DNA from: Bacteroidia bacterium
Lineage (GTDB): Bacteria > Bacteroidota > Bacteroidia > UKL13-3
Direction of reading: 5' to 3'
Length of the DNA: 64,000 nucleotides
Assembly (NCBI GenBank): GCA_044370475.1
Contig: JBILVK010000002.1
Coordinates: 9,383-73,382, forward strand
In this document: positions 2,429-16,303 of the stretch, piece after piece
Position numbering within the stretch: the first letter of the stretch is position 1
How the letters are laid out: each line of letters starts with the position of its first letter
Made by a program: the position numbers and the translations under genes
The notes under the pieces: model-generated
The model's input: only the letters and a program-made list of their open reading frames with translations
Told to the model about the DNA's origin: nothing
The model's database searches: none

Positions 2429-3241
2429 ATGGACCATAAAGAAATAATTGAAAAAGCTTGGGAAGATCGTTCCCTTTTAACAGATACAACTACACAGCAG
2501 GCAATAAATGAAGTGATAGAGAAGCTAGATAAGGGCGTTTTACGAGTGGCCGAACCTACCTCAAATGGTTGGCAGGTAAATGATTGGGTTAAGAAGGCTG
2601 TGATCTTATATTTCCCTATTCGGAAAATGGAAACTTACAACGTTGGACCCATGGAATACCACGATAAAATGGCACTTAAAACCAATTATGCAGAATTGGG
2701 TGTTCGTGTAGTTCCTAATGCCGTTGCGCGATATGGTGCCTACTTAAGTAAGGGCACTATTTTAATGCCAAGCTATGTTAATATTGGTGCTTATGTTGAT
2801 GAAGGAACCATGGTAGATACCTGGGCAACTGTTGGTAGTTGTGCGCAAATAGGTAAGCATGTTCACTTAAGTGGTGGAGTGGGAATTGGTGGCGTTTTAG
2901 AGCCTGTTCAAGCTGCTCCCGTAATCATTGAAGACAATTGCTTTATTGGTTCAAGATGTATAGTTGTTGAAGGAGTACACATTGAAAAGGAGGCTGTTTT
3001 AGGTGCTGGTGTTACCCTAACCATGAGCACAAAAATAATTGATGTAACGGGTCATGAACCCATTGAATACAAAGGTCGCGTACCTGCACGCTCGGTTGTA
3101 ATTCCAGGTTCATATACCAAACAATTTGCAGCTGGTTCTTACCAAGTTCCTTGTGCTTTAATTATTGGTCAAAGAAAACCTAGTACAGATTTAAAAACAT
3201 CTTTAAATAACGCACTTCGCGAATACGACGTAGCAGTATAA
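2429..3241 (+). CDS. dapD: 2,3,4,5-tetrahydropyridine-2,6-dicarboxylate N-succinyltransferase
   Basis: N-terminus MDHKEIIEKAWEDRSLL and hexapeptide-repeat body (GAYVDEGTMVDTWATVGSCAQIGKHVHLSGGVGIGG). Start chosen at the second ATG. Confidence 0.88.
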   Translation: MDHKEIIEKAWEDRSLLTDTTTQQAINEVIEKLDKGVLRVAEPTSNGWQVNDWVKKAVILYFPIRKMETYNVGPMEYHDKMALKTNYAELGVRVVPNAVARYGAYLSKGTILMPSYVNIGAYVDEGTMVDTWATVGSCAQIGKHVHLSGGVGIGGVLEPVQAAPVIIEDNCFIGSRCIVVEGVHIEKEAVLGAGVTLTMSTKIIDVTGHEPIEYKGRVPARSVVIPGSYTKQFAAGSYQVPCALIIGQRKPSTDLKTSLNNALREYDVAV

Positions 3242-3246
3242 ATAAG

Positions 3247-4155
3247 TTAATGTCCCCCGCCTTTCATCATTTTAAAAATATGAAGTAAGGCTGGGAATAC
3301 AGCATCCATTGATTCTTCTGCGCCTCTTGTGCTGCCTGGTAAGGCAAGTACAACCGTATTTCCAATAAGTCCGCATACACTTCTAGAAAGCATAGAATAT
3401 GGCATACGTTGTTGTCCATAATTTCTGATGGCTTCTGCTATGCCAGGAACTTCTTTTTCAATCAAGGGTTGCAAAGCTTCTGGCGTAACGTCAGTAGGTG
3501 AGAGTCCGGTACCCCCTGTAATTATTAATAAATCAATGCCATTGGCACAATGGTTTTTTACCCTATTCTGTATCTCACTTACCTCATCGGGTATCACAAT
3601 ATAATGTGTGTTTGCAAAGCTCATGGCTTCTAGTTTTGCCATAATAGCCTTGCCGGCTTTATCTTCTTTTTTCCCCGCAGAAATACTGTCGGAACACACA
3701 ATTACCGCCGCTTTTAGTTTATCCCCAATATTATTTTTGAAGTCGCTCTTGCCACCTTTTTTCTCAATTAATTTTATCTGCTTAATTTCAATTTGCTTGT
3801 CAATGGGCTTCAACATATCATAAATGGTTAAAGCAACAACAGATGCCCCATGCATGGCCTCAACTTCTACACCTGTTTTATAAATGGTGGAAACCTCTAC
3901 AAAAATTCTAATCTCCAAACCTTCCAATTCATAGGTTATGGCTGTTTGCTCTATGGGCAAAGGATGGCAATCTGGAATCAATTCACTGGTGCGCTTAACC
4001 CCAAATAAACCAGCCGTTCTAGCCATTTCTAATACATCTCCCTTAGGCACACGTTTATTTATAAGTGCATCCATGGTTTGGTTCGAACCAACCACAACGG
4101 TTGCGCTGGCAATTGCTCTGCGGTAAGTATTCGATTTATAGGTTATGTCTATCAT
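3247..4155 (-). CDS. moaC: bifunctional molybdenum cofactor biosynthesis protein MoaC/MoaB (cyclic pyranopterin monophosphate synthase fused to a MogA/MoaB-like domain)
   Basis: The N-terminal half resembles MoaC (KGDVLEMARTAGLFGVKRTSELIPDCHPLP). The C-terminal half resembles MoaB/MogA (IITGGTGLSPTDVTPEA). Confidence 0.88.
   Translation of the reverse strand: MIDITYKSNTYRRAIASATVVVGSNQTMDALINKRVPKGDVLEMARTAGLFGVKRTSELIPDCHPLPIEQTAITYELEGLEIRIFVEVSTIYKTGVEVEAMHGASVVALTIYDMLKPIDKQIEIKQIKLIEKKGGKSDFKNNIGDKLKAAVIVCSDSISAGKKEDKAGKAIMAKLEAMSFANTHYIVIPDEVSEIQNRVKNHCANGIDLLIITGGTGLSPTDVTPEALQPLIEKEVPGIAEAIRNYGQQRMPYSMLSRSVCGLIGNTVVLALPGSTRGAEESMDAVFPALLHIFKMMKGGGH
4078..4091. repeat. iterated motif copy, palindromic variant TTGGTTCGAACCAA
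   Basis: Perfect 14-nt palindrome inside moaC/B (encodes VGSNQ). Confidence 0.75.
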
Positions 4156-4160
4156 TGTAA

Positions 4161-4595
4161 TTATTGATTAATTTTCCATCTACTTGCTTCATCGTTAAAC
4201 AACTCTTTTCCCCAAATTGGAACTTCTTTTTTGATGCGCTCTACCAGGTATTCACATGATTCAATGGCTAACTTTCTGTGTTTAGATGAAGTAAATACAA
4301 ATAAGCAAATTTCTCCAGCATTTACTAGGCCTAAGCTATGATAAATGTGCATGCAAGTGAGGTCATATTTGGCAAAACAATCTTCTCTAATGATATCTAA
4401 AATGGGTTCGGCCATATCTAAATAACACTCGTAATTGATGCCAATAACTTCTATATCGTCTATCTTGTCATTGCGCACCTGACCTAAAAAAATATTATGT
4501 GCACCAATGTCTTTTTTAGTGCTGTGCTTGGTAATAGATTCGGCTATAAACGCAGGCGAAATAGCACCTTCCACAAAAACTTTTTTCTTACTCAT
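4161..4595 (-). CDS. moaE: molybdopterin synthase catalytic subunit MoaE
   Basis: 144 aa. FLGQVRND region and position in the operon next to moaC/B. Confidence 0.82.
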   Translation of the reverse strand: MSKKKVFVEGAISPAFIAESITKHSTKKDIGAHNIFLGQVRNDKIDDIEVIGINYECYLDMAEPILDIIREDCFAKYDLTCMHIYHSLGLVNAGEICLFVFTSSKHRKLAIESCEYLVERIKKEVPIWGKELFNDEASRWKINQ

Positions 4596-4598
4596 GCC

Positions 4599-4826
4599 TC
4601 AAAGTTTTATAATATCAATAATGTGAACCGGACAATTTACCATAGCTCTTTTGTTTTCATCATACTCCCAATCTGGTATGTTTACATTAAACATACCACG
4701 TTTTTCAACAGCTCCCACCAAGTTAGATTTGCCATCAATTCTACTCACACCCCATCTTTGCGGAGCAGCCTCCACACAGGCATTGCAGCCAATGCACTTG
4801 TTTCTTTGCTGAATAATTTTATACAT
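4599..4826 (-). CDS. small single-cluster ferredoxin (about 75 aa)
   Basis: CIGCNAC ... CP cysteine pattern. ATG at 4826 overlaps the last 8 nt of the U32 gene. The track's longer start is a TTG. Confidence 0.7.
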   Translation of the reverse strand: MYKIIQQRNKCIGCNACVEAAPQRWGVSRIDGKSNLVGAVEKRGMFNVNIPDWEYDENKRAMVNCPVHIIDIIKL

Positions 4827-6078
4827 CCTGTGCGTCAACAATTTTATAAAGCTTATCAGAATTCCTCACCTTTTCTGGCAAAATCAAGGAGAAAATATCT
4901 CCTTTGCTTACCTCATTTACCACCTTGTCATCCACACGCAACTCCCCAACAATGCTCTCCTGATAACCACTGCTTGGCCCCATCACAATTACCTTATCAC
5001 CCACTCGCAATTGGTGACTTTCTGCTTTAAATTCTGCTACACCCAATTTAGCAAAATAGTTCATTCCTTTACCAATATAAATTTTCTTTTGGGTAGCCTT
5101 AGAACCATACTCATCATTCCATTCGCCCATCTTCCTGCCTAAGTAATATCCATCCCAAAAACCCCTATTAAACACAGTAGATAAGCGCGTTTTCCAATCC
5201 AATAACTTCTCCTCAGAGTAGCTTTTATCGTAATATGAATCAATTGCCTCTCGGTAACATTTAGTTACTGTATACACATAATCTGCCGAGCGTCCTCTTC
5301 CTTCAATCTTCATTACCTTAACCCCTGCATCTATTATTTTATCAATAAAATCAATGGTGCAAAGGTCCTTGGCCGACATAATATATTCATTGTCTATCTC
5401 AAATTCTATGCCTTCATCTTTATCTGTTACCACATAATTTCTTCTACAATTTTGTATGCATGCACCTCTGTTTGCAGATGCATTATGCGAATGCAAACTC
5501 AAATAACATTTGCCAGATACTGCCATGCATAAAGCTCCATGAACAAAGATTTCTACCTCTATAGGCTTACCGGCTGGACCACAAATATTCTTTCTTTTTA
5601 TCTTAGAACAAATCTCCGCAACCTGCTTTAATGTTAGCTCCCGAGCCAAAACCACCACATCGGCAAAGGTGCTATAAAATTCTACCGTTTCAACATTAGA
5701 AACATTGGCTTGCGTAGAAATATGTACCTCAACACCCTCCTTATATGCAGTACTAATAGCCGCATGATCTGCCGCAATTATTGCCGTAATTCCTGCTTTT
5801 TTAACCGCCTTCACAATGTCCTTCATCAACCTAATATCATGGTCGTATAAAACAGTGTTTAAAGTAAGGTAAGTCTTAACGTTATGCTGCCTTCCAATCT
5901 CTGCAATTTTATCTAAATCATGCAAAGTGAAATTGTTGGTAGAACGCGCGCGCATATTCAATTGCTCCACGCCAAAATAAACAGAATTACACCCTGCTTG
6001 TATAGCCGCCATCATCGATTCATAGGAACCCGCTGGCGCCATTAATTCAATTGCTGTTTCTTTGCTAAATGTTGTCAT
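4819..6078 (-). CDS. U32 family 'peptidase' (family of the RlhA/TrhP/UbiU-type prephenate-dependent hydroxylases)
   Basis: U32 signature E-I-F-V-H-G-A-L-C-M-A-V-S-G-K-C-Y-L-S and N-terminal ELMAPAGS. 419 aa. Confidence 0.9.
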   Translation of the reverse strand: MTTFSKETAIELMAPAGSYESMMAAIQAGCNSVYFGVEQLNMRARSTNNFTLHDLDKIAEIGRQHNVKTYLTLNTVLYDHDIRLMKDIVKAVKKAGITAIIAADHAAISTAYKEGVEVHISTQANVSNVETVEFYSTFADVVVLARELTLKQVAEICSKIKRKNICGPAGKPIEVEIFVHGALCMAVSGKCYLSLHSHNASANRGACIQNCRRNYVVTDKDEGIEFEIDNEYIMSAKDLCTIDFIDKIIDAGVKVMKIEGRGRSADYVYTVTKCYREAIDSYYDKSYSEEKLLDWKTRLSTVFNRGFWDGYYLGRKMGEWNDEYGSKATQKKIYIGKGMNYFAKLGVAEFKAESHQLRVGDKVIVMGPSSGYQESIVGELRVDDKVVNEVSKGDIFSLILPEKVRNSDKLYKIVDAQDV

Positions 6079-7333
6079 AAAATCTATTTTGAATAGCTAT
6101 TGATTCTCCATGAATTTTGTTAAAAACCTCTGTGATAAAATCCTTATCTAAGCCAAATTTACTGGCCTCTACAAGCCTTTTCCTCAAAGTTAACTCCCAT
6201 TGTTCGGTCTGAACCAAAGCCATGTTTAAAGTCTTTTTTACCTCTGCTATTTTTGTTACTATTTCTTTTCTTTTTGCTAGCATTTCTATCATTGATGTGT
6301 CTAAACTGTTCAATGCAAATCGCAAATTCTCTAATGAGCTTTGTGCTTCCTTATGAAGCTTGTTTTCTTCATCAATTAACTCATCATTCGACTGATTTTT
6401 ATTAGTATCAGATAAGGGAATATTTACCTCATTATCCTTACCTGGTAAGCTATCAATTTTCTCAATTGTATTTATATCAAAATCCTTTTCAACGCTAGCT
6501 CGGTTCAAACCGAAATTGTTTTTAAAAATTGATTCACTGCTATTCTTACTTTCTGTTTTTTTGTTGCTAATTGTAGGCGCTAAGTCCAATGATTTTTCTG
6601 CACCAACCGACGAGTAATCGCTTTCATAAAATGTATTGTACAAAGAATGATAGCTCAGCATTTTATTTGCCAAAGGCTTGCCAATTCCACATATTATTTT
6701 TATGGCTTCATTGGCTTGAAGGCAGCCTATAACTCCCGCCAGAACGCCTATTACACCAGCTTCTTCGCAGTTTTGAATGTGCATCCCACTTGGCTCATTA
6801 GGAAATAAATCTCTGTAGTTTTTACTATAGCCTTCATTCATTTTAAGGTTAAATACAGAAACCTGTCCTTCATACCTAGAAATTGAGCCATACACCAAGG
6901 CTTTGCTATGTCTTACACATGCATCATTCAACAAATACCGAGTGGCAAAATTATCTGTGCCATCAATAACCAAATCATACTCTGTTAGGATAGAATCCAC
7001 ATTGTTTGTTTGCATTTCGTGTGGGTAGGTCTGAACCAAGCATTGTGCATTGATTTCTTTAACTTTTTTTGCCGCTTGCTCAGCCTTTAATTTGCCAATA
7101 TCATTTGAAGTATATAATATTTGCCTATGTAAATTGCTTTCTTCTACTACATCAAAATCAACAATTCCTATTTGTCCAACTCCCGCCGAGGCTAAATAAA
7201 TCAATGCCGGACAGCCAAGTCCGCCCGCACCTACCACAAGAACTTTGGCTTCAAACAACTTCTTTTGTTCTACTAAACCAAAATTTGGCAAGCGCATTTG
7301 CCTAGCGTATTTATGGTAGTTTAAATCTTCCAT
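6065..7333 (-). CDS. moeB: MoeB/ThiF-type adenylyltransferase fused by a low-complexity linker to a C-terminal chorismate-mutase-like (AroQ) domain
   Basis: N-terminus VLVVGAGGLGCPALIYLASAGVGQIGIVDFDVVEESNLHRQ is the ThiF/MoeB fold. Start overlaps the moaD stop (TAATG). The last ~89 aa align by eye to E. coli CM. Confidence 0.8.
   Translation of the reverse strand: MEDLNYHKYARQMRLPNFGLVEQKKLFEAKVLVVGAGGLGCPALIYLASAGVGQIGIVDFDVVEESNLHRQILYTSNDIGKLKAEQAAKKVKEINAQCLVQTYPHEMQTNNVDSILTEYDLVIDGTDNFATRYLLNDACVRHSKALVYGSISRYEGQVSVFNLKMNEGYSKNYRDLFPNEPSGMHIQNCEEAGVIGVLAGVIGCLQANEAIKIICGIGKPLANKMLSYHSLYNTFYESDYSSVGAEKSLDLAPTISNKKTESKNSSESIFKNNFGLNRASVEKDFDINTIEKIDSLPGKDNEVNIPLSDTNKNQSNDELIDEENKLHKEAQSSLENLRFALNSLDTSMIEMLAKRKEIVTKIAEVKKTLNMALVQTEQWELTLRKRLVEASKFGLDKDFITEVFNKIHGESIAIQNRFYDNI
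6068..6334 (-). other. chorismate-mutase-like domain (last ~89 residues of the MoeB-like protein)
   Basis: LENLRFALNSLDTSMIEMLAKRKEIVTKIAEVKK...ESIAIQN. Equivalents of EcCM Arg11, Arg28, Lys39, Glu52, Ser84 and Gln88 are visible. Asp48/Arg51 equivalents are not. Confidence 0.6.
6203..6217 (+). repeat. iterated motif copy, exact TTCGGTCTGAACCAA
   Basis: Exact 15-mer. Encodes LVQTE in the CM-like domain. Confidence 0.9.
6501..6514 (-). repeat. iterated motif variant CGGTTCAAACCGAA
   Basis: One core mismatch. Lies in the linker of the MoeB-like protein (encodes FGLNR). Confidence 0.6.
7028..7039 (+). repeat. iterated motif copy GGTCTGAACCAA
   Basis: Exact 10-nt core plus AA. Encodes LVQT in the ThiF domain. 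Confidence 0.8.
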
Positions 7334-7575
7334 TAGCCTCCAGAAAATGGGGGTAACAAGGCCACTTCATTTCCTGCCTCAAGAACATAATCTGCACCAA
7401 CAATTTTCTTGTTTACAGATACTAAATATTCTATTTCATTGAGCAATGGATAGGTCTTAGCCAATTGAGCTTTTAAGGTAAACACACTATCTACTAAGGG
7501 CAAGTTGCAAACATGCTGCTGCATAATTTCTGCTATTTGTCCAAAAGCTAAGACCTCAATTGTTTGATTTGCCAT
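7333..7575 (-). CDS. moaD: molybdopterin synthase sulfur-carrier subunit MoaD
   Basis: 80 aa ending in the Gly-Gly C-terminus (PPFSGG). ATG at 7575 chosen because the longer form in the track begins with TTG. Confidence 0.8.
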   Translation of the reverse strand: MANQTIEVLAFGQIAEIMQQHVCNLPLVDSVFTLKAQLAKTYPLLNEIEYLVSVNKKIVGADYVLEAGNEVALLPPFSGG

Positions 7576-7635
7576 AGAAATTTTTACCCGATAAGGAATG
7601 CTGCAAAAATGAGCATTTTTTTCCTTACTTGGCAA

Positions 7636-8394
7636 TTATGTTAAAACTAGTTTTATAGCTGCCATCAGAAGCACTACTGCCAAAATTCGTTTTAATGCCA
7701 CAATAGGAAGTTTTTTAGCGCCAAAATATGCGCCCAAACTTCCTCCCAATAAAGCTAAAAGTAGCATCCATAAAAAGTTATGGCTATGCACATTATCCAT
7801 GTCAAAAAACAATGCAAGGCTGCCACTTTTAAATAGACCAAAGAGTCCAGCCAATGAATTTACAGCAATAAATAGTGCACTTGTAGCCGAGGTTTCTTTA
7901 AAGTTTAACCACCCTAAAAGCAATAGGAGGGGCGATAAAATTATTCCACCGCCAATACCTATAACGCCCGAAATAAAACCAATTGAGGCTCCAATCAAAA
8001 GGCTGTAGAATATAGAAAATTCTTTTATGGCCGACTCTTTAATCTCATAAAAACCAAAAAGTCGCACTATGGGAATTGTCAATAATAGCGCGAGAATGGG
8101 CCTGTAATATCCATGGCCTATGTTTAAGAATCCGCCCAAAAACGCGGCTGGAATTGACCCCAAAACTAGAAAGAAGAATAGTCTCCAATTCAATTGTACC
8201 CTCGACTTAAACTGAGTAAAACTAATGAGTGAAACAAGTATGTTCAACACCAAAGCACTTGGTTTCATAATGCTGGGCGAAAAGCTAAATAAAGCCATTA
8301 AGGCCAAATAACCACTTGCTCCGCCATGACCAACCGATGCATATAAAAAGGCAATAATAGGCAGGACTATATAAAACAAAAGCTCCCAGTTCAT
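7636..8394 (-). CDS. TauE/SafE (DUF81) family anion permease
   Basis: Polytopic membrane protein with ASVGHGGASGY and GIGGGIILSP motifs typical of TauE/SafE. ATG at 8394 chosen because the track start is TTG. Confidence 0.78.
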   Translation of the reverse strand: MNWELLFYIVLPIIAFLYASVGHGGASGYLALMALFSFSPSIMKPSALVLNILVSLISFTQFKSRVQLNWRLFFFLVLGSIPAAFLGGFLNIGHGYYRPILALLLTIPIVRLFGFYEIKESAIKEFSIFYSLLIGASIGFISGVIGIGGGIILSPLLLLLGWLNFKETSATSALFIAVNSLAGLFGLFKSGSLALFFDMDNVHSHNFLWMLLLALLGGSLGAYFGAKKLPIVALKRILAVVLLMAAIKLVLT

Positions 8395-8402
8395 GCTTCT
8401 AA

Positions 8403-9599
8403 TTACTTCCAACAATCGTCAAATAAATGAATTTCTATAGGAGTTCCTTCACTAACCATAGCAATCTCTTGAGGCAATATGGCAATGCAATTTGCTTCAC
8501 TAAATGCATTTAGTTTATAGGATTCTTGTCCATCACATAAATAAACAAAACCTTGTTCTAACCTAGCTTTTAGGAAATGAGTTAGGCCCACTTTTTTGGT
8601 GTAATCATGTCCAAGTGGATATTTTTCTAGGCCATAGGGATGGTAAGTTAAACCCATCATTTTTCTTATGGTAGGCACTACATATTCATAACAACAGCTT
8701 AAAACAGAGGCCGGATTTCCAGGCAAACCAAACACCATGGTTTCCCCTTTTTTACCAAAGAACAAAGGTTTACCTGGCTTCTGTTTAACCCTGTAAAATA
8801 TGGCCTCTACGCCATTTTTATGAAAAGCTCTTTCTACAAAATCAAAATCGCCAACAGAAATCCCACCGCTCACCAAAAGAACATCACAACAAGCAAGTCC
8901 TTCCTCAATGGCCGCAATCACATCTTCCTCAAAATCATCCACGGTTTTTTTATGCAAAAATGACAAGCCCGCGCCTTGCATCAAAGCCTCCAACATCCAA
9001 GAATTACTCTCGTAAATTTGTCCGTGCTGCAATACTTCACCAGGCATAACAAGCTCCTTACCTGTTAAAATTAAACCCAGTTTTGGTGCAGGAACCACCG
9101 CAACTTCATGTATGCCCAATCCAGCCAAATAGCCAATTAAACCGGGGTTTAAGCGCTTTCCAGCCCTCAATGCAATTTCGCCTTTTTTTATTTGCGATCC
9201 CATTTTTCGAATGTGGGTACCAAGGGTAAAAGCATGGTCTTTAATGCGAATAAAGTTGCTTTCCAGATCAACATGCTCCTGCATCACAACCGTGTCGGCA
9301 CCAACTGGAATGGCTGCTCCCGTAAAAATTCTTATTGCCTTACCAGCTTCCAAACTTAAAATTTCGGTGTCTCCGGCTTGTGCAATTCCCATCACTTCTA
9401 TGGGCGTTTCGGTTCGAACCGAACCCAATGCGACAGCATAACCATCCATAGCAGACTGTGCAAATGGGGGCGAATTGAGCGGTGAAATGATATCCTCTGC
9501 AAGTACTTTCCCAACACAATGATTGAGGTTCATAATGCTTGCTGGTAACATTTTGCAGGTCAATTCTACTCGGTTTTTTGCCTCATCAACGGTAATCAT
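8403..9599 (-). CDS. moeA: molybdopterin molybdotransferase MoeA
   Basis: 398 aa with SPPFAQSAMDGYAV and LVSGGISVGDFDFV motifs. Confidence 0.9.
   Translation of the reverse strand: MITVDEAKNRVELTCKMLPASIMNLNHCVGKVLAEDIISPLNSPPFAQSAMDGYAVALGSVRTETPIEVMGIAQAGDTEILSLEAGKAIRIFTGAAIPVGADTVVMQEHVDLESNFIRIKDHAFTLGTHIRKMGSQIKKGEIALRAGKRLNPGLIGYLAGLGIHEVAVVPAPKLGLILTGKELVMPGEVLQHGQIYESNSWMLEALMQGAGLSFLHKKTVDDFEEDVIAAIEEGLACCDVLLVSGGISVGDFDFVERAFHKNGVEAIFYRVKQKPGKPLFFGKKGETMVFGLPGNPASVLSCCYEYVVPTIRKMMGLTYHPYGLEKYPLGHDYTKKVGLTHFLKARLEQGFVYLCDGQESYKLNAFSEANCIAILPQEIAMVSEGTPIEIHLFDDCWK
9408..9423. repeat. iterated motif copy, palindromic variant TTCGGTTCGAACCGAA
   Basis: Perfect 16-nt palindrome inside moeA (encodes SVRTE). 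Confidence 0.8.
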
Positions 9600-9608
9600 A
9601 AGTGATAT

Positions 9609-10589
9609 TTATCCTCCAATTTTTATCATACTTCGGTTCACAATATTTTCTGCCTGGGTATCTTCATAGTTATCAGAAAATTGTCCGCCTTGCCTAGCTT
9701 TCTTTTGCTGTACCGATTGTTTAATGATAGGTAAAATGTCTATGCCGGCCCTTAAATTGGCCAGCAAGTTGCTTTCTTCGGCAGAAAACAAGCAGTTCTT
9801 TATCTGTCCATCTGCTGTAACTCTTAGCCTGTTGCAATCGCCACAAAACGGCTCACTCATGGTGCTAATAACAGCAAAAGTTCCTTTAAAATCTGTAACC
9901 TGATACTTCTTAGCGGTATCATGTTTAAAATCTTCTAATTTTTGAATAGGGTAGTGCTCGCGCAGTTTGTTTAATATTTCTACATGCGTAAAAACCTTTT
10001 GATGCTCCCAATCATTGCCAGAAAATGGCATGTATTCTATAAAGCGAATATGCAAGGGTAAATCTTTGGTAAGAGCAACAAAATCTGAAATCTCATGCTC
10101 ATTAACCCCCTTCACAACCACCATATTTAATTTAACATGGAATTGATTTTTTAGCATCAATTCAATATTGTCCCATACCTTTTCAAAAGCATGCCTTTGT
10201 GTTAATTGCTTAAAAGTCTCCTTGTTTAGAGAATCAATGCTAATATTTACCGATTTAATTCCAGAAGTTTTAAGCAGCTCCAGGTGCTTATCTAGTAAAA
10301 AACCATTGGTGGTAATGGTTAACTCTGCACCAAGCTCAGATAAATTATGAAGAATTGTATGAATATCTTTTCTTACCAAGGGCTCACCGCCCGTAAGTCT
10401 AATTTTTTTAATGCCTTGTTCAACAAATAACTTTGCTATAGAAAATATTTCGGAGGCACTCATTAACTCCTCGCCAGGCATAAACTTCATTTCCTCGTGA
10501 GGCATGCAATACAAGCACCTAAAATTACATTGATCGGTTAAAGATATCCGCAAATAATCATGTACCCTGCCAAACGAATCCTTCAACAT
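9609..10589 (-). CDS. moaA: GTP 3',8-cyclase MoaA (radical SAM)
   Basis: CNFRCLYCMP radical-SAM motif and C-terminal CGDCNRLRVTADG cluster motif. Confidence 0.94.
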   Translation of the reverse strand: MLKDSFGRVHDYLRISLTDQCNFRCLYCMPHEEMKFMPGEELMSASEIFSIAKLFVEQGIKKIRLTGGEPLVRKDIHTILHNLSELGAELTITTNGFLLDKHLELLKTSGIKSVNISIDSLNKETFKQLTQRHAFEKVWDNIELMLKNQFHVKLNMVVVKGVNEHEISDFVALTKDLPLHIRFIEYMPFSGNDWEHQKVFTHVEILNKLREHYPIQKLEDFKHDTAKKYQVTDFKGTFAVISTMSEPFCGDCNRLRVTADGQIKNCLFSAEESNLLANLRAGIDILPIIKQSVQQKKARQGGQFSDNYEDTQAENIVNRSMIKIGG

Positions 10590-15007: not shown

Positions 15008-16303
15008 GTGGAAAAGAAGTTCTGGACATATATTATTCATTACCTGCACAAACATAATGAGTTATGTTTAGCCGATTTTGGTCGGTTTGCTGCACAGGTA
15101 AGTGAATTTTCTGTTGACCCAGTTGCTAAAAAAATAACCCCTCAACGTAAAAGGATCTACTTTCAAACTGGTGAATTTGGGAATTCCCCAGAATTTTTGA
15201 CATTTATCGCATCAATTTCAAATGATACTCCTGTTCAAATTGTTGATAACTTAGCTTCATTTGTTTCAAAAGCTAAATCGCAATTAAAATCAGATGCTAA
15301 AATAATTGTTGAAGATTTTGGCACATTTAAAATGAATGTAATGGGGGAGTTGGAGTTTGATTCAAACCAAACCCTATTTTTTGAAGATCAATCATTTGGA
15401 TTAAGGCCAATTCATTTTGCTGCAAATTTGCTTAAGACCAAGCGTATTGTTGTTGAGCAGGCCGAGGAGGAGGAGCAGGAATTAGTGCAAATGAGGGAAT
15501 CTGCTTTAAAGGAGCTTAAGGTTTTACTGGATAATGCGCGCGTGGCAGAAAGCAGCGAGCATACCAAGAAAAGCAAAGCTTTTCCAATTATAGCTACTAT
15601 TCTCACCCTCGTTTTACTTATTAACTTAGGCTTCTTTTTGTTTAAAGGTCCGGTAGACCAAATAAAACAACAAATTTCACAGATGAATATTCTTGGGAAA
15701 ACAGGAGAAATTCTGGATTCTCAGGCTTCAGAGTCTTTAGTGGTTAAGCCTGCACAACCTCAGGTTGCTATCATTTCAAAGGATGAAACTTCTTTGCCGC
15801 TTCCAAATTCGGATAGTCTTATAGCGCATATCGGTCAATCGCTAAGTCGTAGTAACTTCGAATTCGATTCCCTGAATTATTCGTTGGTTCAGACCGAAAA
15901 AATAGAAGACAAAATAATTGCAGAGGCTATACCTGAAACACTGGCTACAGAGCCTGTAGCATTGGTACCGCAATATGAGCCCATAGCCAACCCAGTTGAG
16001 GTAATTGACCCTACAGTAGACTATTACAACAGTCCAAACATGGTAAATGTGGATGCCCAAGAAAACGGAATCGACAAGGGATTTTATGTGATTGCAGGTG
16101 CTTTTAAGAGTGAGGATAATGCCAATAAAATGAAGGCCAAAATGGTTAAAAAGGGCGATACTTCAGCGATTGTTTTTAAGCCGAGCTCGTACCCTTATTA
16201 TTTGGTTTCATATCAAAAAAGCAAAACGCTTAATCAAGCTTTAAATTTGTTGGAGAAAAAAGACGATGCAAACCCAGCAATTTGGGTCTACTGCGCTTAC
16301 TAA
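15008..16303 (+). CDS. HU-like N-terminal domain / membrane anchor / C-terminal SPOR domain protein
   Basis: GTG start. One TM segment (FPIIATILTLVLLINLGFFLF). C-terminus GFYVIAGAFKSEDNANKMKAKM is SPOR-like. Confidence 0.65.
   Translation: MEKKFWTYIIHYLHKHNELCLADFGRFAAQVSEFSVDPVAKKITPQRKRIYFQTGEFGNSPEFLTFIASISNDTPVQIVDNLASFVSKAKSQLKSDAKIIVEDFGTFKMNVMGELEFDSNQTLFFEDQSFGLRPIHFAANLLKTKRIVVEQAEEEEQELVQMRESALKELKVLLDNARVAESSEHTKKSKAFPIIATILTLVLLINLGFFLFKGPVDQIKQQISQMNILGKTGEILDSQASESLVVKPAQPQVAIISKDETSLPLPNSDSLIAHIGQSLSRSNFEFDSLNYSLVQTEKIEDKIIAEAIPETLATEPVALVPQYEPIANPVEVIDPTVDYYNSPNMVNVDAQENGIDKGFYVIAGAFKSEDNANKMKAKMVKKGDTSAIVFKPSSYPYYLVSYQKSKTLNQALNLLEKKDDANPAIWVYCAY
15884..15903 (-). repeat. 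iterated motif copy, extended form TTGGTTCAGACCGAAAAAAT
   Basis: Exact 15-mer plus A-run. The 20 nt are identical to 34848..34867. Confidence 0.92.

Follow-up and report, generated by a model that had tools for sequence, protein, structure and literature searches.

A chorismate mutase domain fused to MoeB and linked to genes for a U32-family protein and a ferredoxin in a molybdenum cofactor operon of a Bacteroidia bacterium

The U32 'peptidases' have only recently been recognised as O2-independent hydroxylases that use an oxygen atom of prephenate. Prephenate is the demonstrated oxygen donor for UbiU/V (PMC10990095) and is required in the reactions of TrhP (PMC6599085) and RlhA (PMC5727448), and the iron-sulfur 'U32 oxidases' are defined by a CX6CX15CX3C motif in a 2024 review, which also states that direct evidence for the U32 reaction and for the transformation of prephenate is still missing (PMC11574389). 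Prephenate is made from chorismate by chorismate mutase (CM). The canonical polar active-site set of AroQ-type CMs includes Arg51 in the numbering of the E. coli enzyme (EcCM) (PMC5526877). Bacteroidota carry AroQ domains fused to DAHP synthase (DAHPS, or DAH7PS), and this DAH7PS-CM class, known from Prevotella nigrescens and Porphyromonas gingivalis (PMC8408635, PMC12202928), is experimentally active and often the sole CM of the organism (PMC8408635). Here we describe an AroQ domain fused to a MoeB-type protein, encoded in a 64,000-nt stretch of contig JBILVK010000002.1 from a Bacteroidia bacterium (assembly GCA_044370475.1, positions 9,383 to 73,382; hereafter the window), where genes for a U32-family protein and a ferredoxin (Fdx) follow it within a molybdenum cofactor (Moco) operon. 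We favour, with fair but not high confidence, the reading that CM, U32 and Fdx form a prephenate-dependent hydroxylase unit with its own dedicated CM, and that the fusion to MoeB is incidental.

The fusion gene, moeB-CM (6065..7333, (-) strand, as are all genes and domains described below), encodes 422 aa and was delimited from the list of open reading frames (ORFs), its Pfam matches (ThiF plus CM_2) and nine orthologous clusters of like architecture. The product consists of a ThiF/MoeB adenylyltransferase domain (residues 9-235, 6629..7309; PF00899, E 2e-78), an Asn/Ser/Lys/Glu/Asp-rich disordered linker (approximately residues 242-333, 6335..6610) and an AroQ (type II) CM domain (residues 334-422, 6068..6334; PF01817, AlphaFold2 (AF2) and Foldseek). 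The linker was delimited from the per-residue confidence score of AF2 (pLDDT) and the alignment of orthologues. AF2 modelling of the whole protein gave a confident ThiF domain (pLDDT > 90), a stretch with pLDDT < 50 at residues 242-318 and a helical C-terminus. A preliminary description of the window, made from the sequence alone, had proposed this same three-part architecture, and both the Pfam matches and the disorder predicted by AF2 agree with it.

The CM_2 match covered residues 338-415 of the full protein in Pfam (E 6.4e-15, 55.6 bits against a gathering score of 27), and the last 89 residues alone scored 60.9 bits (E 1.4e-16). As the CM part was only moderately confident in the AF2 model of the full-length monomer, where helices 1 and 2 ran together, the domain-only model was preferred; built with 15 homologues, it had a pLDDT of 93.6 and three helices (2-39, 47-63 and 68-91). 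All 50 top Foldseek matches in the PDB were AroQ CMs or PchB, and the best was 1ECM, the E. coli CM, with a TM score of 0.92-0.93 and a root-mean-square deviation of 0.8-0.9 Å over 88-89 columns. The preliminary description had let its assignment of these 89 residues depend on a CM_2 profile match and an AroQ fold, and both were found. The equivalogs for CM in NCBIfam (CM_T, CM_P_1, CM_archaeal and PchB-type) scored 37-46 bits at best against cut-offs of 67-273, and since every score lies under its cut-off, the domain falls in no curated NCBIfam CM subfamily.

In the alignment of the domain to PDB sequences by phmmer, which was the same as the by-eye alignment of the preliminary description, the equivalents of EcCM Arg11, Arg28, Lys39, Ser84 and Gln88 were R338, R355, K366, S411 and Q415, as had been proposed; these residues are invariant in the nine fusion proteins. 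The same alignment contains a one-residue gap that puts Arg51 on Trp379. An ungapped alignment to the P. furiosus CM instead places Asp48, Arg51 and Glu52 on Gln375, Gln378 and Trp379 (codons at 6209-6211, 6200..6202 and 6197-6199, respectively). The gapped HMMER alignment to 1ECM was rejected as probably off by one, because the five conserved residues all map with a single offset of +327, the predicted helix boundaries agree with the ungapped register, and 174 related domains, recovered when 1.84 billion representative proteins were searched with a profile, read Q-x-x-R-[W/Y/F] with the arginine in the Gln378 column. This column tally was the most telling evidence for the register. The substitutions relative to EcCM then read as Asp48 to Gln375, Arg51 to Gln378, Glu52 to Trp379 and Ile81 to His, and the full canonical polar set (Arg11', Arg28, Lys39, Asp48, Arg51, Glu52 and Gln88) is not present; the overall identity to EcCM is 21-22%, and the fusion partner differs. 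The arginine is missing in either register. Thus, of the earlier readings of this site, the missing arginine and the ungapped Q...Q option held, whereas the T...W option, with Trp replacing Arg51, did not, since Trp379 is at the Glu52 position; for the same reason the Glu52 equivalent claimed there was lost. Gln375 and Trp379 are moreover normal for the active Bacteroidota DAH7PS-CM class.

The closest relatives of the domain were the CM domains that Bacteroidota fusion proteins bear C-terminal to DAHP synthase. By profile and signature it belongs to the same AroQ subclass, with Q at position 48, W/Y/F at 52, H at 81, the motif IH.ESI..Q and a dimeric three-helix fold, and it is taken to descend from the CM domain that DAHP synthase normally bears in Bacteroidota. 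Of five Bacteroidota DAHPS-CM domains read from genomes, four had Q..RW together with [I/V/L]H.ESI..Q, and one had His in place of Arg. As Gln48, Trp52 and His81 are common to this active class, they are compatible with catalysis, and the loss of Arg51 alone is special. The domain in the window differs from the class in being detached from DAHP synthase and attached to MoeB (or, in relatives, standing alone before U32), in having Gln for Arg51, and in residing in an organism with no Phe/Tyr branch to feed.

The position of Arg51 was then compared among the related CMs. It was occupied by a residue other than Arg in 14 of 14 small CMs encoded co-directionally and directly upstream of U32 (Q, H, N, F, V, I or Y) and in 10 of 10 CMs fused to MoeB (Q, or V in G044). 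Arg was present in four of five DAHPS-linked CMs, in all five proteins of 242-291 aa of the same family that are encoded divergently from U32 (termed X-CM), and in both standalone CMs with Arg that served as control look-ups, neither of which adjoins U32. The broader statement that every U32-neighbouring CM lacks Arg51 was rejected, as the divergently transcribed X-CM proteins keep it.

The absence of the arginine from 24 of 24 co-directional or fused copies, its replacement by chemically unrelated residues and the non-canonical Asp48 and Glu52 positions are what would be expected of a dead or nearly dead AroQ module that only binds chorismate or prephenate, either as a carrier that hands spontaneous or imported prephenate to U32 or as a sensor with a modulating effect on MoeB or U32. 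Some DAHPS-fused CM domains do act mainly as prephenate-binding regulators (PMC5526877, PMC8408635). We nevertheless consider such a module unlikely here. Arg11', Arg28, Lys39, Ser84 and Gln88 are invariant; Gln48, Trp52 and His81 also occur in the active DAHPS-CM class (PMC8408635); and in B. subtilis BsCM_2 the ligand contacts of the Arg51 equivalent are water-mediated, so that its loss should weaken activity rather than abolish it (PMC5526877). Furthermore, a CM of this kind is the only one in eight of nine genomes described below, with no other prephenate maker. As seven unrelated residues occur at position 51, the position appears to be under relaxed constraint without a new specific role, which would fit a need for catalytic amounts of prephenate rather than for biosynthetic flux. 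Under the preferred reading of a CM dedicated to U32, the loss of Arg51 is thus predicted to relax or down-tune catalysis, weakening it rather than inactivating the enzyme. An AroQ CM whose active site is sub-optimal and which acts together with another protein has a precedent in MtCM (AroQ-delta) of M. tuberculosis. This enzyme is weak by nature and is activated by the DAHP synthase with which it pairs (PMC7762937, PMC9910054), though its active-site deviation differs from that of the CM in the window.

The pocket differs from that of EcCM at positions 48, 51, 52 and 81, PchB structures were among the fold matches, and weak NCBIfam matches to isochorismate lyase and 'CM-like' models were obtained, all of which would suit an AroQ enzyme with a changed reaction, such as a PchB-like isochorismate-pyruvate lyase or another mutase of chorismate derivatives, that provides U32 with a donor other than prephenate. 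We regard this as very improbable, as three of the four pocket differences are common to bona fide DAHPS-linked CMs, CM models outscore PchB models, position 51 is variable instead of re-specialised, and no isochorismate synthase context was seen beside the cassette.

The U32-family [4Fe-4S] protein, a probable prephenate-dependent hydroxylase, is encoded immediately downstream (4819..6078, 419 aa; PF01136, E 7e-69) by a gene whose start shares 14 nt with the end of moeB-CM. At its own end, this gene in turn overlaps the gene for a small single-cluster ferredoxin (4599..4841, 80 aa; Fer4_15, E 1.4e-9). The motif C184-X6-C191-X15-C207-X3-C211, which matches that of the Fe-S 'U32 oxidases', was 100% conserved in 81 sequences, and identities between U32 proteins of this type in Bacteroidota and neighbouring phyla were 60-75%. 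The Peptidase_U32 domain and the cysteine motif are shared with TrhP, RlhA and UbiU/UbiV (PMC6599085, PMC5727448, PMC10990095). Orthology to any of these four was not found: the scores against NCBIfam were 200 bits for TrhP (cut-off 534), 153 for UbiU (440) and 54 for UbiV (275), and the DUF3656 domain of RlhA was absent by Pfam. No solved structure was matched by sequence. The ferredoxin gene directly followed U32 in 76 of 80 species-representative loci, which points to Fdx as a fixed partner of this U32 type. The genetic tie of a CM to U32 matches the prephenate requirement shown in E. coli; there, prephenate comes from the housekeeping PheA and TyrA, whereas the cassette in the window encodes a dedicated CM and a dedicated ferredoxin. 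A 2019 study by Lauhon reportedly concerns the ferredoxin YfhL and 5-hydroxyuridine (ho5U).

Next, the content of the prephenate pathway was compared between genomes. The genome from which the window derives (94% complete) encodes chorismate synthase, one CM_2 domain (the fusion), one U32 protein (its neighbour) and two Mo-bis(pterin guanine dinucleotide) (Mo-bisPGD) enzymes. Profile searches of this genome found no prephenate dehydratase (PDT), prephenate/arogenate dehydrogenase (PDH), AroH-type CM (CM_1) or CmoA, and its DAHPS/KDO8PS-like genes contain no CM domain. U32 is therefore the last known user of prephenate predicted in this genome. The suggestion in the preliminary description that the CM might supply the neighbouring U32 enzyme gains support from this combination of a sole CM and a sole U32 with PDT, PDH and CmoA absent, and also from comparative evidence, namely the free-standing cassettes and the joint presence and absence within the genus described below. 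At least one CM_2 domain was present in 30 of 30 U32-bearing genomes. In the nine of these with a U32-linked or fused CM, PDT was absent from all nine and the linked or fused CM was the sole CM in eight; the remaining 21 all carried a DAHPS-CM. Fisher's exact test on the split of 8/9 versus 0/21 gave approximately 1.5e-6. Among 25 representatives of the window's genus, 17 lacked CM_2, and PDT and PDH are lacking from the window's genome; from gene content, the genus appears to be a Phe and Tyr auxotroph that has retained chorismate synthase.

Within the operon, moeB-CM is preceded by moaD (7333..7635; PF02597, and TIGR01682 moaD with E 3.5e-11), encoding the ThiS-family sulfur carrier that is the putative substrate of the MoeB domain and whose stop codon overlaps the start of moeB-CM by 1 nt. 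The whole operon, as read from Pfam matches of each ORF, comprises moaA, moeA, tauE, moaD, moeB-CM, U32, fdx, moaE and moaC/moaB (3247..10589). For the N-terminal part of the fusion protein the best NCBIfam matches were MoeB/MoeZ/ThiF models, with MoeB at E 1e-77 to 4e-89 and 258-299 bits; these scores lie below the full-length equivalog cut-offs because the models also cover rhodanese or other regions. Compared with E. coli MoeB and with the MoeB-rhodanese proteins of most Bacteroidota, the ThiF fold and profile, the neighbouring moaD and moaE, the complete moa/moe operon and the presence of Mo enzymes in the genome are alike. In contrast, neither the zinc-binding CxxC pairs of E. coli type nor the C-terminal rhodanese of MoeZ/MOCS3 type is present, and the C-terminal extension is a CM instead of a sulfurtransferase; no rhodanese (PF00581) was found by Pfam and no CxxC occurs anywhere in the 422-aa sequence, as had been noted earlier. 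As the MoeB of congener G046 also lacks both, CxxC and rhodanese are dispensable in this genus. The N-terminal module is thus predicted to be an ordinary MoeB, albeit without rhodanese, whose role in molybdopterin synthesis is to adenylate MoaD.

The distribution of the fusion was examined in a search of 5.8 billion clustered proteins, in which nine ThiF+CM_2 clusters were among the top matches and the rest were ThiF+rhodanese or ThiF alone. All fusions examined showed one operon order, moaA-moeA-tauE-moaD-moeB.CM-U32-fdx-moaE-moaC/B, flanked by DUF4290 and dapD, and synteny was identical in L001, L003, L004 and L006 and in G035, G044 and G045. The orthologous proteins were 339 to 459 aa in total length, and the length of the linker varied from approximately 10 to approximately 135 residues; it was approximately 10 aa in most orthologues in the protein alignment, with long inserts in P0001 and P0005 only. 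We read the fusion protein as two independent modules joined by a floppy tether. Any CM_2 was found in 8 of the 25 species representatives of the genus; in seven of these eight it matched the fused CM (in G049 within a contig-truncated frame of 257 aa), and in G053 it was a standalone gene before U32. The fused CM domains formed one clade (FastTree support 0.87).

A U32-centred search for related loci also recovered the same type of CM as a free-standing gene. In L011, L021, L058, L080, L104/105 and L106/107, a CM gene encoding approximately 100 aa overlaps the start of U32 and is followed by Fdx, and the same CM-U32-Fdx cassette was found in eight further genomes (G053, G057-G061, G103 and G115), one of them a congener and the rest from sister genera. 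The opposite state was represented by congener G046, whose whole genome (2.59 Mb, 13 contigs, 99% complete) contains no CM, U32, ferredoxin or TauE. At the corresponding site it reads DUF4290-moaA-moeA-moaD-moeB-moaE-moaC/B-dapD, its MoeB (243 aa) ends exactly where the linker of the fusion starts, and its Mo-bisPGD enzyme is 76% identical to that of the window's genome. These indicate that CM, U32 and Fdx were gained or lost together within the genus, and, because G046 lacks CM yet has the Moco operon and a Mo-bisPGD enzyme, that Moco biosynthesis does not need the CM. A mosaic origin or horizontal transfer of moeA-moaD-moeB, whose identity to the G046 genes was 33-48%, was rejected, as these were the fastest-evolving genes in all pairwise comparisons, including those between fusion-bearing congeners.

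The preliminary description had treated the fusion as a Rosetta stone that couples the MoaD-activating enzyme to chorismate and prephenate chemistry. Extended to the whole cassette, this would mean that CM-U32-Fdx takes part in molybdopterin or pterin chemistry or acts on a product of MoaD/MoeB-dependent sulfur transfer, for example by hydroxylating or oxidising a pterin intermediate or a thiolated RNA base without O2, and that the fusion reflects a physical complex. Such a role would account for the presence of U32-Fdx in or abutting Moco genes in four arrangements (genus g1, G074, L030 and L075), for the PTPS/QueD-like pterin enzyme that follows Fdx in several lineages, and for the CM occupying the place held by rhodanese in most Bacteroidota MoeB proteins. 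It is, however, quite improbable in our estimation: G046 lacks CM, U32 and Fdx although its Moco operon, with a plain MoeB, is intact and it has a Mo-bisPGD enzyme, no Moco gene lies within 4 kb at 76 of 80 U32-Fdx loci, the linker is disordered and variable in length, and the same CM type occurs as a separate gene before U32. In addition, U32, at 60-75% identity throughout the phylum, looks like a housekeeping protein independent of the patchy Moco pathway. We likewise give little weight to a related proposal, in which the placement of U32 beside Moco genes is no coincidence and the substrate of U32 is pterin- or molybdopterin-related or else arises from the MoaD/MoeB sulfur relay. If it were true, it would reveal an unknown O2-independent accessory step tied to Moco metabolism in Bacteroidota. 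The proximity of U32-Fdx to Moco genes might, at a guess, reflect co-regulation under low oxygen.

Taken together, these observations suggest that CM, U32 and Fdx are probably one accessory unit, and that its fusion to MoeB is probably an accident of gene order. In the model we propose, the lineage lost the Phe/Tyr branch, and CM, as a dimer, would convert chorismate to prephenate for U32 alone. The U32 [4Fe-4S] enzyme, made in step with CM by translational coupling, would take an oxygen atom from prephenate and hydroxylate its substrate without O2, with the dedicated ferredoxin as its electron carrier. The analogy of TrhP and RlhA suggests that the target would most likely be a base in RNA. 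The unit would be dispensable, since congeners lack it. As the cassette lies directly 3' of moeB, the reading frame of CM could become fused to moeB, with no cross-talk expected between the two modules. MoeB and AroQ CM are both dimers, so that the tethering would be structurally harmless. Bacteria of this clade are presumably menaquinone users.

Several points weigh against this model. The genome is a 248-contig assembly, so that the absences carry some risk, and G046 is the one CM-less congener that was examined for U32. U32-Fdx stands beside Moco genes in four arrangements, more than chance suggests, and the TrhP score of U32 is far under the equivalog cut-off. In genome G099, no U32 gene lies within 4.5 kb of a small CM that lacks Arg51. 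Finally, the absence of Arg51, a member of the canonical polar set (PMC5526877), could severely reduce activity, and the seven different residues found in its place would also fit a domain that only binds a ligand.

The fusion protein is already called 'adenylyltransferase/chorismate mutase' in the automatic annotation of JGI. A literature search found no paper on a MoeB-CM fusion, on a CM-U32-Fdx cassette or a CM beside U32, or on an Arg51-less CM subclass. The locus and its relatives represent a natural self-contained three-gene unit (CM, U32 and ferredoxin) in organisms with no other predicted use for prephenate, and thereby offer comparative-genomic support, outside Proteobacteria and Bacilli, for prephenate as a co-substrate of U32. 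The cassette also nominates the ferredoxin as the missing electron-transfer partner for in vitro reconstitution, and it defines an Arg51-less CM subclass whose kinetics would show how little CM activity serves a co-substrate role. The interest lies mainly with work on prephenate-dependent U32 hydroxylases. The locus further advises caution with Rosetta-stone fusions, as the real functional partner of CM appears to be the next gene and not the fused MoeB.

An over-represented DNA word overlaps the CM coding region near the missing arginine. One copy of the 15-mer TTCGGTCTGAACCAA lies at 6203..6217 ((+) strand), where it is read as L373-V-Q-T-E377 and stops one codon short of Gln378. The word occurs in 18 copies in the window with up to 2 mismatches (0.14 expected; for example at 15884, 26259, 34848 and 54480) and in 158 exact copies in the 3.49-Mb genome, equally on both strands (77 on + and 81 on -). 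Its 10-mer core GGTCTGAACC has 504 copies in the genome, with N-A after every copy and usually TTTC before. Inside moeB-CM the word is conserved at synonymous sites, and it is also found in the related genomes L003 and L006; both have it at the matching site, with the surrounding 29 nt identical though the proteins are 48-62% identical. The word resembles an uptake signal or a Chi sequence. The preliminary description had placed it on the divergent LVQTEQW stretch and had raised the possibility that it overwrote part of the active site. The first point applies to L373-E377, with Gln378 and Trp379 lying outside the word. The second is refuted by the comparison of orthologues proposed at the same time, as the word is absent from this site in L004 and L001, both of which still read Q..QW, and the Gln378 codon is not part of the word. 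A role of the word as destroyer of the arginine codon was likewise rejected on the grounds that co-directional U32-linked CMs of other genera also lack Arg51 and have other peptides there.

Other genes and proteins recurred around these loci. The TauE/SafE-family permease gene tauE (7636-8415), between moeA and moaD, was found in every fusion-bearing operon and in L030; it is absent from G046 and co-varies with CM-U32-Fdx in the genus. A gene of the PTPS/QueD-like (6-pyruvoyl-tetrahydropterin synthase) family lies directly after Fdx in L012 (7460-7924), L013 (7541-7897), L106 (5600-6061) and L255 (G057; 2690-3160). It was rejected as a general neighbour of U32-Fdx, being present in only 2 of 80 species-representative loci, though it recurs in several metagenomic lineages.

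X-CM proteins of 242-298 aa, encoded divergently from U32-Fdx, were found in L256 (G074), L257 (G075), L258 (G105), L259 (G106), L260 (G056), L046, L054 and L086. Their C-terminal CM has Arg51 in family f1. Their N-terminal part has no Pfam match but shows a weak alignment with the end of the barrel of DAHP synthase; X-CM proteins may have arisen by decay of DAHPS-CM proteins and may represent an intermediate in evolution. Tandem double-CM_2 proteins of approximately 190-230 aa (P0244-P0251, P0254, P0259, P0260 and others) were also recovered, in which the first domain reads Y-S-x-R-[EK]...Y-A and the second [DA]-x-x-R-W...H-A-E. In L109 (1040-2209), the gene that lies downstream of an Arg51-keeping standalone CM (P0264) and overlaps with it is FAD-dependent amine-oxidase-like and not U32, representing a different partnership.

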